A DNA stretch of 64,000 nt, taken from the IMG/VR virus record IMGVR_UViG_3300044991_001838, positions 1-64,000 of that record; one strand, given 5' to 3'. The position numbers were made by a program, and so were the translations under genes. This DNA is from a virus. Lineage: Duplodnaviria > Heunggongvirae > Uroviricota > Caudoviricetes. The first letter of the stretch is position 1. Each line of letters begins with the position of its first letter. Below the pieces are notes generated by a model, which saw only the letters and a list, made by a program, of their open reading frames with translations, was not told where the DNA came from and did not search any database. Positions 3,669 to 31,770 of the stretch are shown piece after piece.

Positions 3669-3910
3669 AGTATTCCTGCCTCCTCTCTCCACATTTCTTC
3701 CATATGGTTTCTTGACGCGTTGTAGTTTCCGTAGTCGCCCCAATAATCCAATAGGGACTCAAACGCCAATTTAAGTTTATTATATTTTTGTTCGGATTCA
3801 TTTATACCAAAGACATAAGATTCTGTCATTGCGTCAATAACAGAATCTTTATCTAAGAATGAATTATGTACGATTTTTGATTCGTAAATTTCTTCTAATT
3901 TATTTTTCAT
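3665..3910 (-). CDS. hypothetical protein
   Basis: 81-aa ORF, ATGA overlap with RNA ligase gene. Confidence 0.45.
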   Translation of the reverse strand: MKNKLEEIYESKIVHNSFLDKDSVIDAMTESYVFGINESEQKYNKLKLAFESLLDYWGDYGNYNASRNHMEEMWREEAGIL

Positions 3911-4989
3911 GGTTCAATTTCTTTTTGCCAAAACGGTTTACTATATTGTGGTTTAATCAATTTCCAAATAATCTCATCATATGGTTTTTTATCCCACATG
4001 GCAAACATTATTGGTCGTAATACTTCTTGTTGTTTTAATACAAACTCCGCAAATTCTTTTTTTGTTGGTTCAGGGTCCACATCACCATATTTTCCATAAC
4101 GGAATCCATCGTGAAGTTTACCAGCTCTTTCAGATATTTGAAAAAACCCATATCTTAAATCTCTAATGGTATTTTTAACCCATTTATCAAATTCATCAGG
4201 GACTTTATCTAATAGTTCAGAGACATCTTTACCATCTTTTAGATATTCCCATATGTCAACATTTGAGAATCCAGTTAAGATTCTATGTAAACGAACATAT
4301 TCTTCCCCTTTTATTTTCATACGAAATCCGTTTCTAAAACGAATAACATAACCTTCGCGGTTTTGAGTTATTTGAGATTTAAGTATGTCGTAATCGGTTA
4401 CATCATCGTATTTTTTAACGGTTGGTAAACCACTTACTTCATTGATGGATAACATTGAAGTATAATCTAATTCTTTACCTGAGACATTACTTATCATACA
4501 TAATACAACCAATTCTTCATCATCACCATAATCACAAACAATACGATTTTCAGGGTAAATAATCTCTACAACGGTAGTATAACCTTTTGGTAAAACTTCA
4601 ACATTGTATTTTTCATTTAATATCTTAGTCCCTCTAATTGATTGGTCAGAAATAAACGAACCTTTACTTGCCAAAATCCAATTTCCTCTAAACCAAAATA
4701 AAATACCTAAAGAACCATCTAATTTTTCATATACTTCAAAAGTTTCTTCGGGGATGTCTTTAAAGGTTAATTCTTCGTAGTTGAAAAACTTATTAAATGA
4801 TTTTGCAACAACATTACCTTCATTATCCAAGATAAGCCCTCGGCAAATTTTAGTAACACTATCCCAGTTATTCTCATACTGACAAGTACGAGAATAATTG
4901 TATATTGAAATAGGAAGGGTTGGGTGGTCATTTTTAACCACCAACCCTCTTTCTATGTAATCGTTTAATATGTTTATATCTACGGTCAT
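3907..4989 (-). CDS. rnlA: RNA ligase 1 (T4 RnlA-like)
   Basis: YNYSRTCQYENNWDSVTKICRGLILD, KxDGS motif I (EKLDGSLG), EGYVIRF...KIKGEEYVRLH resemble T4 Rnl1 blocks. Confidence 0.75.
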   Translation of the reverse strand: MTVDINILNDYIERGLVVKNDHPTLPISIYNYSRTCQYENNWDSVTKICRGLILDNEGNVVAKSFNKFFNYEELTFKDIPEETFEVYEKLDGSLGILFWFRGNWILASKGSFISDQSIRGTKILNEKYNVEVLPKGYTTVVEIIYPENRIVCDYGDDEELVVLCMISNVSGKELDYTSMLSINEVSGLPTVKKYDDVTDYDILKSQITQNREGYVIRFRNGFRMKIKGEEYVRLHRILTGFSNVDIWEYLKDGKDVSELLDKVPDEFDKWVKNTIRDLRYGFFQISERAGKLHDGFRYGKYGDVDPEPTKKEFAEFVLKQQEVLRPIMFAMWDKKPYDEIIWKLIKPQYSKPFWQKEIEP

Positions 4990-19605: not shown

Positions 19606-19612
19606 CAAATAA

Positions 19613-19687
19613 GGGGTTACATGTTCCAAGGCTTGGCGAGAAACACTTGCAATGTCTCTGAGGTGAGTTCGATTCTCACTAGCTCCA
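19613..19687 (+). tRNA. tRNA-Ala (UGC)-like with non-canonical D-arm
   Basis: Acceptor GGGGTTA/TAGCTCC with G3:U70, anticodon loop CUUGCAA, T-arm GTGAG-TTCGATT-CTCAC; D region (CATGTTCCAAGGCTTGGCGAG) does not form a standard D-stem and position 8 is C. Confidence 0.45.
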
Positions 19688-19700
19688 CAAAAATAAAACT

Positions 19701-21309: not shown

Positions 21310-21417
21310 AATGTGTTGTTCCTGTGAGATAGGAATGAAATAGTCGGGTGAGATTATAAATTTTGAAAAGATTTATGTCTATATTTGCACAACACGAGGA
21401 GTTCTCAACCTCAAAAT

Positions 21418-21507
21418 AGTTAGGTGGCGGAATTGGTAGACGCTTTAAGGTACTTTATCATTGCTGAAGTTTAAATATCCTCACAGGTTCGAGTCCTGTC
21501 CTGACTA
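21418..21507 (+). tRNA. Leu-type class II tRNA-like gene with aberrant, extended anticodon region
   Basis: 5' half AGTTAGG-TG-GCGGAATTGGTAGACGC and 3' half ACAGG-TTCGAGT-CCTGT-CCTGACT-A match the Leu tRNA frame (E. coli tRNA-Leu has GGTGGCGGAATTGGTAGACGC), but 39 nt between D- and T-arms give no 5-bp stem plus 7-nt loop; the region folds as TTTAA-GGT-ACTT-(11-nt loop)-AAGT-TTAAA. Confidence 0.4.
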
Positions 21508-21646
21508 CTAAATTCAATTAAAGACAAGACCCTGACATATGTTTATGGTGCGTCCCGATGTGTCTAAGCTAGAAGTACAATAGCACAAATCACATTGACA
21601 ACAGTTATCGGAGTGGAAATGGAAGTCCACAATTGAATTTTAAAAT

Positions 21647-21726: not shown

Positions 21727-21944
21727 CGATTGAGATAGAGATACTCAATAGATTTGGCATCGTTACTTAAACAATGATGTAGCTGGTACTCCAAACGGTT
21801 TTACAGAGGGAGTCGTCGGAAAAACGGCAAGAGAACCATCTTGACCTCCGAGTATATGGTTGACTTTTAAGCGGTAAGACGCGATGGGTTTTGAATAGGA
21901 AAACTGTAGATATCTACACCAAAATAATCTCATTGGTGGAAAAT

Positions 21945-22190: not shown

Positions 22191-22376
22191 CAAAAAAAAA
22201 TAATATTTGACAAATTGAAGATTTTGACTATCTTTGATATAATTATAGAAACAATGAAAACTACAATACAACATATGGTCTTTAGTAAACAACAAATAGT
22301 TTGTTGGTATGAGCGTATGCTGCTATGTAGTTCGGATGTAATCGTAGGATAATAATATAAATTTATATCATATCAG

Positions 22377-22412
22377 ACCCCGAACTTTTAATTAAGGTTC
22401 GGGGTTTTTTTA
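22377..22412 (+). terminator. rho-independent terminator
   Basis: GACCCCGAAC-loop-GTTCGGGG then T7. Confidence 0.7.
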
Positions 22413-22446
22413 TTCTATAATCTTTTGCTCTTTGAAATATTGATTG

Positions 22447-22454
22447 TATCTTTG
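22447..22454 (+). promoter_or_regulatory. Bacteroidetes -7 element TATCTTTG upstream of tRNA-Glu/Val/Phe run
   Basis: TAnnTTTG 16 nt before tRNA-Glu; follows terminator 22377-22412. Confidence 0.4.
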
Positions 22455-22620: not shown

Positions 22621-22766
22621 CTAAGATAATGGTTCTAACCATTCAATGGAATGTCGACAATTCCGAATGGAGCAATAGTTCATCACCCTTTCTGCCGAGG
22701 CCTCATAAAACTCAGGAAAGCAGTTAAGATTGGAGCGAGACGGGTACTCCATCATTATCTTTATTT

Positions 22767-22839: not shown

Positions 22840-23243
22840 CGGAGTCCCGAATTAACGGGAAACCCCCACTCCCATATGGCAGCCAGTCCATTAACCTGGT
22901 GAAGTGGGGTTGTTAGTCGACTGTGTAATGAGGGAAGGTCCCAAACCCCCAAGACCAATAGTCACAGACACTTGTGTTGACTATGGAGTTGTAAGGTTGC
23001 CTTGTGCGGGTTCGAGTCCCGTGTCGACTACACGAGTCGAGTAGTATACGACTAGTTTGCTCCCGAACGATGAGAAGTGGTTTTACAACCATGGGGACCT
23101 GAGCCGATTACTTGAGTCTAAGTCGGTTGGTTAGTGTACCATTAACAGGAGTAAGTTAACACACAAGTTCTAACCCCTCACGTAAGTGGGTTGCCGCTGA
23201 AATTCGGTATTGGGGACAGTCAGAAATGATTGAACGAAAAAAA
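22840..23243 (+). ncRNA. candidate structured stable RNA(s) within tRNA island (tRNA-like 3' terminus)
   Basis: About 400 nt without ORFs, markedly more GC-rich than flanks; ends with T-arm GCGGG-TTCGAGT-CCCGT plus acceptor GTCGACT-A whose complement AGTCGAC lies about 110 nt upstream; multiple local hairpins. Confidence 0.35.
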
Positions 23244-23317
23244 GACCTCTTAGCTCAGTTGGCTAGAGCACTTCACTTTTAATGAAGGAGTCCCGAGTTC
23301 GAGTCTCGGAGGGGTCA
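23244..23317 (+). tRNA. tRNA-Lys (UUU)
   Basis: Acceptor GACCTCT/AGGGGTC, D-arm GCTC-AGTTGGCTA-GAGC, anticodon arm CTTCA-CTTTTAA-TGAAG, T-arm CCGAG-TTCGAGT-CTCGG. Confidence 0.85.
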
Positions 23318-23333
23318 CAAAAAAATAGAAATT

Positions 23334-25147: not shown

Positions 25148-25449
25148 CAAAAGGTTGATTGGGGAATGATTGTACTAATAGTTCGAGAGTGAATGCCGGC
25201 TAGTACAATCGGAGTTGGGAGGTATTCACCTAAGTAACGCTAATCGTAAAAACAGATGTCCACGCAACCATCTTCTGTTTTCCTAAAAGAATTAAGACAG
25301 ACCTATAACTTACGTCAGTGGTAGTGTAGGGGTGAGGTTCGGAGTAATCAACCAAACCAAGAGACCGCCGAGGGTAAACACGGGTATGATGCCCGTCTAG
25401 TCCCCTAAGACTGAAATATCGGAGAATCCTCATTGTCTGTTTTATAATT
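25148..25449 (+). ncRNA. candidate structured stable RNA within tRNA island
   Basis: GC-rich ORF-free 300 nt; 10-bp stem GATTGTACTA/TAGTACAATC (25168-25212), hairpin ACAGATG...CATCTTCTGTTTT with U-tract, hairpin ACGGGTATGATGCCCGT. Confidence 0.35.
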
Positions 25450-25985: not shown

Positions 25986-26066
25986 CTAAACTGCGTGACT
26001 TAGAGGAAAAGAACTATCTCTCATAAGGATGGTCAATTGGGTTCGAAACCCAAACACGCAACATAT

Positions 26067-26140
26067 GGTGGCTATAGCTCAGTTGGTAGAGCGCTTGGTT
26101 GTGGTCCAAGTTGTCACGGGTTCGATTCCCGTTAGTCACC
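26067..26140 (+). tRNA. tRNA-His (GUG) with encoded G-1
   Basis: Extra 5' G pairing with discriminator C73 (His identity), acceptor GTGGCTA/TAGTCAC, anticodon arm CTTGG-TTGTGGT-CCAAG, T-arm ACGGG-TTCGATT-CCCGT. Confidence 0.85.
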
Positions 26141-26175
26141 CTAATATTTTTCATCTATACCGACTATTTATTAGT

Positions 26176-26754
26176 ATGGAAAAGAAATTAACATTAACAA
26201 AGGAACAATTATTTAAAGTGATGCACTTGAATGAGGCGGAAAACAAACCAGGTTTAACAAAGTCACCTAAATTATACTCGTTATCAGATAAGACAATTAA
26301 AATCTTAACTGATAGAATCAAAGACGAATATACTGCACATTATTATTACAGAGCGGCAACTAACTGGTGTGCGGATATGAACTACAAAAAAGCGGCAGCG
26401 TTTTTTGAAAATGAGGCAAAAGATGAATTAGGTCATTCTGAGATTTTACAACAATATATGACCGATTTCAATATTATCCCTGAAATCCCATCAGCAAAAA
26501 TTAGTCATACTTTCAATAGTTTGGAAGAAATTATTAATGGAGCTTATGAAATGGAATTGGCATTAATGAAAGCATATAACAAAGATTCACAAACAGTATT
26601 TTCTGATGATATTACAACATTTGATGTTTTAACTAAATTTAGAAAAATTCAAAAAGGTGCCGTAGTTGAGTATAACGACTTAATTAATGCATTGAGTTTA
26701 ATTGATAGTAAAGATAAGTTCCAAGTATTATACTTTGAACAAACATACTTTTAA
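26176..26754 (+). CDS. ferritin-like (non-haem ferritin) protein
   Basis: AATNWCADMNYKKAAAFFENEAKDELGHSEILQQYMTDFNIIP parallels FtnA [42 protein letters not shown]; tracked ORF start 26029 lies inside tRNA-His, so start reset to MEKKL at 26176. Confidence 0.65.
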   Translation: MEKKLTLTKEQLFKVMHLNEAENKPGLTKSPKLYSLSDKTIKILTDRIKDEYTAHYYYRAATNWCADMNYKKAAAFFENEAKDELGHSEILQQYMTDFNIIPEIPSAKISHTFNSLEEIINGAYEMELALMKAYNKDSQTVFSDDITTFDVLTKFRKIQKGAVVEYNDLINALSLIDSKDKFQVLYFEQTYF

Positions 26755-26776
26755 TATAGAAGAGATTTAAATACTA

Positions 26777-26812
26777 AATCCCTCTGATTAAAAGTCAGGG
26801 GGATTTTTTTTA
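26777..26812 (+). terminator. rho-independent terminator after ferritin gene
   Basis: ATCCCTCTGA-TTAAAAG-TCAGGGGGAT then T8. Confidence 0.7.
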
Positions 26813-30072: not shown

Positions 30073-30264
30073 TTATATTTTATCAAAGTGTTTATTGTTT
30101 AATTCCTCAATAGAAATTTGATTATTTTTCCATTCTTTCCAAACTTCAAAATCTTTTAATTCTGTTAAAGTATCTTCATGAACCAATAGAAATCCTTCAG
30201 GTGCAATACCTTTTAATTTACCCATTGGTCCTCTTTCCTCAATAATTTTTTTTATATCAATCAT
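30073..30264 (-). CDS. hypothetical protein
   Basis: 63-aa ORF coupled to upstream gene. Confidence 0.4.
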   Translation of the reverse strand: MIDIKKIIEERGPMGKLKGIAPEGFLLVHEDTLTELKDFEVWKEWKNNQISIEELNNKHFDKI

Positions 30265-30958
30265 TATTAGTTAAATATTCCAATAATTTTTCTTTAACAC
30301 CAGATTGTTTGATTCCTTCATTTTCTCTTGGTGTATGAACAAAGTTAGATAATCCCCATACTTGTTCATAACCATAAGAATCTTTCCCTCCTAACTGTAA
30401 ATCGTCAATACAAGCCCAATGTGTGATTTCGGGATGGTCTGTTAGATATTGTCTAACCTCAATACATCTTTGTTGTTCATGCATTGTACTTCGTCTCCAT
30501 ACAAACTCATCAGGTTTATCACAACCGATGTATCGTTTGGTGAATGCTATTGGTGCCTTTGAGATTCCTTTTGACAGGTAATATTCACCAATTTCTTCCA
30601 ATGTTGCGTGTAATCTCCAATCAGAAGAAACAACAAGTTCAGCACCTGTTAATTCTAAGACATCATTTAATACTTTAACGGCTTTCTTATCAAAATCATC
30701 AAATCGTACTTCAACGGGTGCTACAGTGTCGCTAGTTGCTTCAGGATTAAGTTTCTTATACTTCTTCCATTTTTTGGCTCGACCACCCCAATTATTGGAG
30801 AGACAGATTACCCCGTCATTATCCAAAAATATTACCTTATTTGTTTTCATTTTATTTAATAATTTAATTGATTCAAATCTAATAGCGTCAGTTAATTCTT
30901 GGCATTCCCAGCACCAATCATTATTATCTATCCCAATATGCTTATAACACTTCAACAT
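30257..30958 (-). CDS. HAD-like hydrolase (nucleotidase/phosphatase-like) with N-terminal Cys pair
   Basis: VIFLDNDGVI DxDGV motif I. Confidence 0.5.
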   Translation of the reverse strand: MLKCYKHIGIDNNDWCWECQELTDAIRFESIKLLNKMKTNKVIFLDNDGVICLSNNWGGRAKKWKKYKKLNPEATSDTVAPVEVRFDDFDKKAVKVLNDVLELTGAELVVSSDWRLHATLEEIGEYYLSKGISKAPIAFTKRYIGCDKPDEFVWRRSTMHEQQRCIEVRQYLTDHPEITHWACIDDLQLGGKDSYGYEQVWGLSNFVHTPRENEGIKQSGVKEKLLEYLTNND

Positions 30959-31292: not shown

Positions 31293-31299
31293 CTTTTTG

Positions 31300-31770
31300 G
31301 TGGAGATGTCGGCTTCGAAGCCGAGTGTTGTTCACCCTAATTGTTCAGGACTACACGTTTAGGATAACATTAGTTCTCAATGTTCCAAAATATCAGGTCT
31401 GATGTATGTGAGAAACCTACCTGCAAACAACTTGGTCTTAGAGTTATTTTAAACGAGCTCTAACCTGTCACCCGTATACTGAACTTCTGTTGCTAGGTTG
31501 AATGTTCTAACCGACCCCTTGTTGTTCCCTGAACTATGCAGTAACAACAGCTTCTTCTCTAGTCAAACCTAAAGCAGAAAGCTTAGCAAAAGTATTGCCA
31601 ATTGAATTTTACCATCACAGATTTAAGTCATAGATGATGTTTGACTACGTGCCCCAAATAAGTAGTAATGCCAGTCAATTCCATTTCATCCCCTTATTTT
31701 AACACTACAAAGATAGAAATAAATATGTAGATTCCAAACAGAAAAGGTATTTATATTAAAAATAGTTTTT
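31300..31770. ncRNA. GC-rich ORF-free segment, candidate ncRNA
   Basis: About 470 nt with no ORF of 60 aa or more apart from an edge overlap; perfect hairpin GTCGGCTTCGAAGCCGAG near its start; GC clearly above genome background. Confidence 0.25.

Follow-up and report, generated by a model that had tools for sequence, protein, structure and literature searches.

In the tRNA region of phage T4, rnaD (119 nt) lies 1 nt downstream of tRNA-Arg, and rnaC (139 nt) 6 nt downstream of rnaD. These RNAs, species 2 and 1, are small stable RNAs lying inside the tRNA operon, and to our knowledge they have been without a known function since the 1970s. In the 3' part of rnaC, about 93 nt, an interior that does not form a cloverleaf is enclosed by an acceptor (ACGGAACG/CGUUUCGU) together with a canonical T arm. 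A second comparable system is that of the theta ribozymes of gut phages, in which, for 77% of the tRNA-associated cases, the cleavage site is at most 1 nt away from the tRNA 3' end (PMC10879173) and which have the layout P1-J-P2-ACC-U-CC-ACGY-GGU-P1'-GG-L4-CUAA-P2' (data file of PMC10879173). Here we describe the 403-nt gap between the genes for tRNA-Phe and tRNA-Lys in a stretch of 64,000 nucleotides (the window; positions 1 to 64,000 of IMG/VR virus record IMGVR_UViG_3300044991_001838, Caudoviricetes). Judged by its T4-type portal, Gp23 capsid and large terminase proteins, the phage of the window is a distant T4-like myovirus.

The gap, which had been described from the sequence of the window alone (the sequence-only reading) as a structured segment of 400 nt, holds three separate conserved structured RNAs and not a single one. 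Altogether 80 related IMG/VR loci were gathered via a neighbouring 199-aa protein, and comparison with these loci by nhmmer split the segment into module A (22840–22910), module B (22915–23030) and module C (23031–23243). The first 71–74 nt or so, which form module A, are almost identical in more than 20 loci, and in many relatives A is the sole content of an exact 74-nt gap between tRNA-Phe and tRNA-Lys. Modules B and C are present in only some of the relatives and in other combinations, and the three thus occur independently of each other. They are conserved and covarying, lie on the plus strand, keep an exact junction geometry and are distributed among phages only; the segment is made up of three unannotated RNA families, seen in uncultured phage contigs only. 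The modules and their two neighbours are the following.

22767–22839/40, plus strand: tRNA-Phe (GAA), the upstream tRNA (ARAGORN; Rfam tRNA model, 72.3 bits)
22840–22910, plus strand: module A, predicted H-type pseudoknot with embedded hairpins (covariance model, 98.1 bits)
22911–22914, plus strand: spacer UGUU of 4 nt between A and B, in relatives 4–8 nt and variable in sequence
22915–23030, plus strand: module B, tRNA-like RNA without anticodon, 116 nt (sequence, alignment A3)
23031–23243, plus strand: module C, multi-hairpin RNA of about 210 nt (nhmmer, 13 contexts; alignment A4)
23244–23318, plus strand: tRNA-Lys (UUU), the downstream tRNA (ARAGORN; Rfam, 67.4 bits)

The GC content of the gap is 48–50%, as against 25–33% in the neighbouring coding DNA and about 30% in the phage, and within 22841–23243 there are only short, overlapping and unconserved open reading frames (ORFs) of at most 65 aa. 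The description of the segment as GC-rich, free of ORFs and placed between tRNA-Phe and tRNA-Lys was thus correct. The gap belongs to a plus-strand array of 22 tRNA genes (ARAGORN, Rfam). The discriminator A of tRNA-Phe (22839) is followed by a C (22840) and then by the first base of module A proper, G1. The folding energy of the whole 403-nt segment was no better than that of shuffled sequences on either strand (z about −0.9); bulk stability is therefore unremarkable, and the signal lies in the conservation and covariation of the sub-modules. Compensatory changes, for which the sequence-only reading had pointed to related phages, were found in A, B and C alike.

No Rfam family matched the segment 22841–23243, neither at gathering scores nor at E ≤ 10, which agrees with the suggestion that it encodes new non-coding RNA. 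Rfam scans of the window, of locus L111 and of eight loci carrying subtype 3 of module A gave tRNAs and noise only (for the tmRNA of the window see below), and blastn found no homologue of the 403-nt segment or of the subtype 3 consensus in 50,697 GenBank phage records. Literature searches with sequence strings and topics gave no match, with the limit that a 2023 catalogue of 8,495 candidate structured RNAs from IMG/VR (PMC10690425) could contain the motifs unnamed. A strong intrinsic terminator is present at 22375–22407, upstream of tRNA-Glu, and the next strong terminator of the plus strand at 26776–26806. Since there is no strong plus-strand terminator between these two, A, B and C probably share a transcript with the tRNAs.

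Module A, which the sequence-only reading had overlooked, is the most conserved and widespread element of the segment. Its pairing pattern predicts an H-type pseudoknot of about 70 nt with a hairpin embedded in loop 3, composed in the window of the following parts.

22840, plus strand: junction C
22841–22845, plus strand: 5' strand of stem S1, GGAGU
22846–22859, plus strand: hairpin H1, CCCG/AAUUAA/CGGG
22862–22867, plus strand: 5' strand of stem S2, (A)CCCCC
22868–22872, plus strand: 3' strand of S1, ACUCC
22873–22881, plus strand: linker, C-AUAUGGCA
22882–22900, plus strand: hairpin H2, with GCCAG (22882–22886), loop UCCAUUAAC (22887–22895) and CUGGU (22896–22900)
22901–22903, plus strand: GAA
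22904–22910, plus strand: 3' strand of S2, GUGGGG(U)

Pattern scans of IMG/VR and metagenome contigs, followed by a structural parser, yielded at least 102 unique variants of A in uncultured phage contigs, ranging in size from 57 to 75 nt. The consensus begins with the junction C and the S1 5' strand G-R-R-G-W, after which comes either a loop 1 of 1–3 nt or H1 with about 3 nt. The S2 5' strand (5–6 nt) directly abuts the S1 3' strand (5 nt), and this is followed by C(N)AUAUGGCA, the 5-bp stem of H2 with the loop UCCRUUAAN, GAA(N), and the S2 3' strand. With no nucleotide between the S2 5' and S1 3' strands and a loop 1 of 1–3 nt, a coaxial stack of about 11 bp is predicted.

All four helices covary. 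Among the variants listed, in which invariance and pairing are somewhat inflated because the parser demanded at least four pairs per helix and the scans fixed part of the linker and the loop, canonical pairing was 99.8% in S1, 94% in S2, 99.8% in H2 and 98.8% in H1. With the partners shuffled the means were 87, 70, 83 and 89%, respectively, and none of 1000 shuffles reached the observed values. One scan was made with the linker free and another with the 3' half free, and the fixed parts recurred in both. The partners of S2 swap wholesale between lineages (CCCCAC/GUGGGG, GGUAA/UUACC, AGCAA/UUGCU, AAUAA/UUAUU, ACACUC/GAGUGU and CUCUC/GAGAG), and the G–U pairs are consistent with the plus strand only. 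The G1–C pair is invariant among the variants listed. Three unpaired stretches are near-invariant: AUAUGGCA, rarely replaced by ACAUGGCA; the loop UCCRUUAAN; and GAA, present between H2 and the S2 3' strand in 99 of the 102 variants listed. These bases must either be in contact with something or form a tertiary core. The covariance model found one copy of A per locus, in the window only the one at 98.1 bits, and the pattern used for anchoring A was absent from 185,579 prokaryotic species genomes.

The position of A relative to tRNAs is equally regular at its 5' side. In 75 of the 102 variants listed, the distance from the end of a canonical T loop to G1 is exactly 13 nt, and in 73 of the 102 a tRNA called by ARAGORN ends at the junction C (48 Phe, 15 Asn, 3 Val, 3 Leu, and one each of Gly, Asp and His). 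Several of the remaining copies follow tRNA-like genes that ARAGORN misses, and the copies of type 2 lie between tRNA-Asn and tRNA-His. On the 3' side the next element, either a tRNA or a tRNA-like RNA of the B type, follows at a variable distance of 4–8 nt. The base before G1 is C in every tRNA-adjacent context and U in the three contexts without an upstream tRNA (L252, L289 and L283). In L252 and L289, A carries an extra 3' hairpin and is preceded by an 80-aa ORF and followed, 4 nt on, by a single isolated tRNA-Arg; in L283 it overlaps the stop codon of the upstream ORF by 10 nt, ends in an intrinsic terminator and has no tRNA nearby. The U before G1 together with these stand-alone copies assigns the junction C to the tRNA and makes A a self-contained RNA unit.

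Two further elements were seen beside A in the relatives. At the subtype 3 loci (L187, L163, L176, L174, L194, L198 and others), A is followed by UGAC, a stem of 4–5 bp and the loop GAAAGA. This hairpin module also occurs alone a few bases upstream of tRNAs, for instance as a second copy in L187, and in L283 it has a U7 tail and is terminator-like. In L030 (9541–9809) the space between tRNA-Phe and A holds a different RNA of about 270 nt ending in a T arm (GUGGGUUCGAUUCCCGC), and another tRNA-like RNA (GUUAAG..CUUAAC) comes after A; the arrays of this phage group thus hold several unrelated tRNA-like passengers.

Module B combines the two ends of a tRNA with an interior of its own.

22915–22921, plus strand: 5' strand of the acceptor, AGUCGAC, followed by U8 and G9
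about 22958–22990, plus strand: variable tip hairpin of a long arm, which comes after the conserved core GUAAUGAGGGAAGGUCCC..CCCCAAGAC and before GGAGUUGUAAGGUUGCC
23006–23022, plus strand: T arm GCGGG-UUCGAGU-CCCGU, with a 5-bp stem and a loop of the form UUCRANY
23023–23029, plus strand: 3' strand of the acceptor, GUCGACU, giving a 7-bp acceptor with 7/7 pairs
23030, plus strand: discriminator A

The sequence-only reading had already paired GTCGACT with AGTCGAC about 110 nt upstream (the distance is 108 nt, and 7/7 bases pair) and had placed the T arm and acceptor at the end of the segment; they are present at 23006–23030, but in its middle. The tRNA-like domain which it proposed is genuine, with a covarying acceptor, a canonical T arm and a non-tRNA interior. 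In nine homologues (alignment A3) both-sided compensatory changes occur at four of the seven acceptor pairs, and such changes are found also in the long arm. From these nine homologues to the 34 contexts subsequently compiled, all of them in loci chosen for A, the family retains the covarying acceptor, U8–G9, the canonical T arm and the discriminator A, and two conserved blocks, GUAAUGMGGGAYGGU(R)CCC and GRAGUYGUAAGGUUGYC. The position of the anticodon arm is taken by a long helix, CC..RAC / GUY..GG, with compensatory changes among G–C, G–U and A–U pairs. The hairpin at the tip of this helix is swapped between subfamilies, and short forms of 79 nt have a loop of 6 or 8 nt, AGUAAAAU. Most members carry a long variable arm, which is deleted in the window and replaced by a different 22-nt hairpin in L004 and L082. 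In 22 contexts B lies 4 nt after A, and three of the short 79-nt forms stand directly before A. Complementarity between the near-invariant loops of A and the conserved blocks of B was looked for, and none was found.

Examined as a tRNA, B has neither a D arm nor an anticodon arm, and its sequence allows no anticodon loop of 7 nt. It was missed by ARAGORN, with or without introns, and by the Rfam tRNA model on 22841–23243 even at E ≤ 10. The intron-bearing tRNA, which had been named as another possibility, was rejected, as ARAGORN -i gave nothing at default settings, no excision restores a cloverleaf and the 7-nt anticodon loop is impossible. The tRNA-Thr reported by ARAGORN -ps90 at 22885–23031 is spurious, its 5' strand being borrowed from the conserved H2 of A. 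A tRNA-Tyr with GUA inside GUYGUAAGG lacks a 5-bp stem around a 7-nt loop, and a group I intron gave no Rfam hit, the interior of about 85 nt being too short for one. As a tmRNA, B has U3–A70 instead of G–U, no tag ORF, no call by ARAGORN -m and no Rfam tmRNA hit in the segment; in the search of one relative the tmRNA_permuted model of Rfam matched with only 15.7 bits (E = 0.67). With U–A at position 3:70, B has neither tmRNA nor alanine identity. In comparison to the tRNA-like domain of tRNAs and tmRNA, B shares the 7-bp acceptor, U8, the GTTCGAGTC T arm and the discriminator A, and as in tmRNA a long helix stands for the anticodon arm. It differs in lacking the D arm, the anticodon cloverleaf, the G–U at 3:70 and the tag ORF, and in being missed by the Rfam models and ARAGORN.

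Module C was found by nhmmer in 13 contexts, most of them between a tRNA-like 3' end and a tRNA.

23035–23054, plus strand: variable 5' leader hairpin
about 23058 onwards, plus strand: core, beginning near UGCUCCCGAACGAUGAGAAG

The core, which includes the GNRA-capped hairpin CUCAC-GUAA-GUGGG, is conserved to about 95%, with compensatory changes in two hairpins and in the GNRA-capped stem, for example GUGGUUUUACAACCAU versus GUGGUGUCACUACCAC (alignment A4). The 3' limit of C is the 5' end of tRNA-Lys. Resemblances of C to RNase P RNA, group II domain V and the coding piece of a tmRNA are scattered, and no model hit was obtained for any of these.

The analogy to the T4 species 1 and 2 RNAs drawn in the sequence-only reading holds in position and architecture. 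A single nucleotide separates rnaD from tRNA-Arg, and likewise A from the discriminator of tRNA-Phe; as rnaC lies 6 nt after rnaD, B lies 4 nt after A, and the 3' domain of rnaC resembles B. Like A, B and C, also rnaC and rnaD have no Rfam family. However, rnaD has a 3'-terminal CCA and no pseudoknot of the A type, B has nothing that corresponds to the 46-nt 5' extension of rnaC, and the window has C as a third module. No similarity of the modules to the T4 RNAs was detected either in sequence (blastn) or with the covariance model (the A model on the T4 tRNA region). A, B and C may accordingly be regarded as counterparts of the T4 species 2 and 1 RNAs by shared layout, not by homology.

For the role of the three modules, the reading that we prefer, with confidence evenly balanced, is that they are stable passenger RNAs which are excised by tRNA-processing enzymes and act in trans. 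Since each has the end of a tRNA or of a tRNA-like element at its boundaries, we infer that the tRNA-processing machinery, namely RNase Z/BN-type enzymes and RNase P, would release them. The 5' end of A would be set by the 3'-end maturation of tRNA-Phe, RNase P acting at the acceptor stem of B would sever A from B, C would be freed by 3' maturation of B, and RNase P at the 5' end of tRNA-Lys would trim C and define its 3' end. After release, S1 and S2 of A would stack and both termini would be buried in helices, as expected of a stable RNA, and A would act through AUAUGGCA, UCCRUUAAN and GAA on a partner. B would keep the acceptor/T-arm minihelix that is read by RNase P, the 3'-end enzymes and the CCA-adding enzyme, but could not decode. 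Bacteria generally cannot trim 5' extensions, while 3' tails are shortened as far as a helix; the exact abutment of A at its 5' side and its loose spacing at the 3' side would fit an untrimmable 5' end and a 3' end trimmable by exonucleases. Also the stand-alone copies of A in L283, L252 and L289 count in favour of passenger RNAs, as do the independent occurrence of the modules, the covariation of A and the layout shared with T4.

Several points weigh against this. The release and the stability of A, B and C are what we infer only, and the invariance and pairing of A carry the slight inflation mentioned above. The conserved unpaired bases of A and its double-pseudoknot-like compactness are more typical of ribozymes and aptamers than of base-pairing small RNAs, and the strictly fixed distance from the upstream tRNA would be just as compatible with a cis role in tRNA 3'-end formation.

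The chief alternative for A is that of a self-cleaving ribozyme of a new class, cutting between C22840 and G22841 and so releasing the 3' end of the upstream tRNA with a fold different from that of theta ribozymes; we consider this possible on the sequence evidence, yet doubtful. A is 57–75 nt long, pseudoknotted and strongly covarying, with many near-invariant unpaired bases. In most contexts G1 lies exactly one base past the discriminator, a placement like that of theta ribozymes, and G1 opens the first helix as in HDV-type ribozymes. The likeness to theta ribozymes extends to the compact pseudoknot whose first base, a G, abuts a phage tRNA 3' end, to one or few copies per genome, and to an occurrence in data of uncultured phages only. 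The theta layout cannot, however, be threaded onto A: the P3/L3 hairpin is missing between the S2 5' and S1 3' strands, GAA is found where the catalytic C of J4/2 would sit, there is no P1.1 GG after the 3' strand of P1, and no GG follows the last pseudoknot strand. Theta ribozymes are also from gut phages, whereas the contigs with A seem, by their identifiers, to be from freshwater and other kinds of environmental sample. No known ribozyme family matches A even at Rfam E ≤ 10, and A is present in a single copy per locus, although about 20 other tRNAs of the array manage without it. In L283 the stop codon of the upstream ORF lies 8–10 nt inside the motif, so that cleavage would give a non-stop mRNA, and in the three contexts without an upstream tRNA the base at −1 is U. 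Hardly more probable is the wider proposal that A represents a class of catalytic or ligand-sensing RNA not recognised before and that B and C are further classes travelling along with it.

Assignments of A to known motifs were tried and rejected one after another. As an HDV or theta ribozyme it has the order S1-S2-S1'-hairpin-S2', no P3, no C in J4/2 and no Rfam hit of HDV type. A circularly permuted HDV ribozyme, with the C before G1 as the catalytic base, fits in helix order, but it would have to cut within the RNA, and P4 and the P1.1 GG are either lacking or out of place. The likeness to twister is a superficial one of the P4 loop, S1 and S2 being crossed where twister needs nested P1 and P2; the connectivity of pistol does not fit, and the CUGANGA core of the hammerhead is absent. 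Twister, pistol, hammerhead and hatchet gave no Rfam match at E ≤ 10 in the window segment or the relatives, the hatchet consensus having been checked via Rfam only. A coding mini-ORF (AUG GCA ...) is contradicted by a frame and stop that are not conserved between types and by changes that are compensatory at the RNA level, and a mimic of the Shine-Dalgarno or anti-Shine-Dalgarno sequence in S1 by the free covariation of this stem.

Alternatively, A might be a signal for processing in cis, its stacked S1 and S2 (11 bp) mimicking an acceptor/T-arm minihelix so that RNase P cuts 5' of G1; this appears very unlikely to us. RNase P cuts pseudoknotted tRNA-like structures, and the H-type geometry predicts a coaxial stack of about 11 bp. 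A cut at this site would produce a tRNA-N73-C74 whose 3'-OH could directly be extended to CCA, and both the invariance of G1–C and the C before G1 in every tRNA-adjacent context are in line with it. Such a mimic would nevertheless leave the near-invariant AUAUGGCA, UCCRUUAAN and GAA and the terminator-bearing stand-alone copies unexplained. No RCCA-like tail follows the S1 3' strand, and a tRNA 1 nt downstream would do the same job, as in T4.

It is still less credible that the segment is decaying debris of the tRNA array, with B a tRNA pseudogene or an interrupted tRNA and the rest spacer. B does have U8 and G9 and, in relatives, a long variable arm resembling that of class II tRNAs, and the same array contains aberrant tRNA-like genes at 21416–21508 and 19611–19690. 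The non-tRNA core of B is, however, conserved across the 34 contexts, its acceptor and long arm change in a compensatory way, and a cloverleaf is not regained by excising any segment; the conservation of A and C exceeds that of the neighbouring proteins (65–97% identical). Covariation thus largely refutes this explanation.

The least probable explanation, to which we give scarcely any weight, is that A is a ligand-binding, riboswitch-like aptamer of preQ1-II topology. We take the helix order of A, S1(5')-L1-S2(5')-S1(3')-linker-hairpin-GAA-S2(3'), to resemble that of the preQ1-II riboswitch, which presumably likewise has two pseudoknot stems, a hairpin in loop 3 and conserved junction bases. 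The copies of type 2 are flanked by two queuosine-carrying tRNAs, tRNA-Asn and tRNA-His, but most copies lie behind tRNA-Phe, which is not queuosine-modified, and almost none is in a 5' untranslated region; no Rfam riboswitch model matches, and neither an expression platform nor sequestration of a Shine-Dalgarno sequence is apparent.

Outside the gap, the window contains further RNA features and genes connected with RNA.

3907–4989, minus strand: RnlA-type RNA ligase (RNA_lig_T4_1, E = 5e-19)
19611–19690, plus strand: tRNA-Ala-like gene, uncalled, directly after tRNA-Thr
21416–21508, plus strand: tRNA-Leu-like element, uncalled
21728–21944, plus strand: GC-rich gap of 217 nt between tRNA-Gln and tRNA-Arg
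22424–22454, plus strand: promoter-like site TTTG-N19-TATCTTTG, between the terminator at 22375–22407 and tRNA-Glu
22622–22766, plus strand: spacer of 145 nt (41% GC) from tRNA-Val to tRNA-Phe
25149–25449, plus strand: GC-rich gap of 301 nt between tRNA-Trp and tRNA-Tyr
26025–26060, plus strand: T-arm-like site ATTGG-GTTCGAAAC-CCAAA, in the 81-nt gap before tRNA-His
30257–30958, minus strand: protein with the HAD domain of 'Swiss Army Knife' RNA-repair proteins (E = 4e-17)
31298–31693, minus strand: tmRNA (Rfam, 47.9 bits with a cut-off of 47; not called by ARAGORN)

The tRNA-Ala-like gene has the acceptor GGGGUUA/UAGCUCC with G3:U70, a CUUGCAA loop (UGC anticodon) and the T arm GGUGA-GUUCGAU-UCACU, but its D-arm region is aberrant. 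The window is otherwise without a tRNA-Ala, and relatives have tRNA-Ala(UGC) at this place. The tRNA-Leu-like element has the acceptor AGUUAGG/CCUGACU, a class II D arm GCGGAAUUGGUAGACGC and a canonical T arm, with a loop of about 22 nt at the position of the anticodon loop; the versions in L104, L101, L111 and L086 have other insertions. The spacer between tRNA-Val and tRNA-Phe is of the same length in L001, L004 and L026 and of 4, 77 or 83 nt in other relatives, and it may be a fourth passenger RNA. The two GC-rich gaps (40–43%) contain no long ORFs, and the T-arm-like site before tRNA-His overlaps the predicted start of a ferritin-like ORF (26029–26754). The ends of the tmRNA are convincing: the 5' end has GGGGAUGA, the 3' end has a T arm and after it ..AUCUCCACCA, and there is a G3:U70 pair. 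Together, the RNA ligase and the HAD-domain protein are an RNA-repair toolkit beside the tRNA array and the tmRNA. The phage also encodes ClpP and a ClpB-like ATPase. The promoter-like site presumably resembles the Bacteroidota promoter consensus TTTG / TAnnTTTG, and tRNA-Glu of the window has a 93% match to Flavobacterium phages; the two hint at a Bacteroidota host.

About 400 nt of functional RNA and several aberrant tRNA-like genes of the window are thus left unannotated by tRNA finders and Rfam. With over 100 variants, four covarying helices and a phage-only distribution, A is a candidate for testing as a ribozyme or aptamer. If A self-cleaves, it would constitute a new class of self-cleaving ribozyme and, beside the theta ribozymes, a second solution with an unrelated structure, and phages would have evolved RNA-only maturation of tRNA 3' ends at least twice. 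The new families vary enough for structure-guided experiments. That unrelated sequences share the same operon layout in a distant T4-like lineage suggests that passenger RNAs are a general, selected feature of phage tRNA operons.

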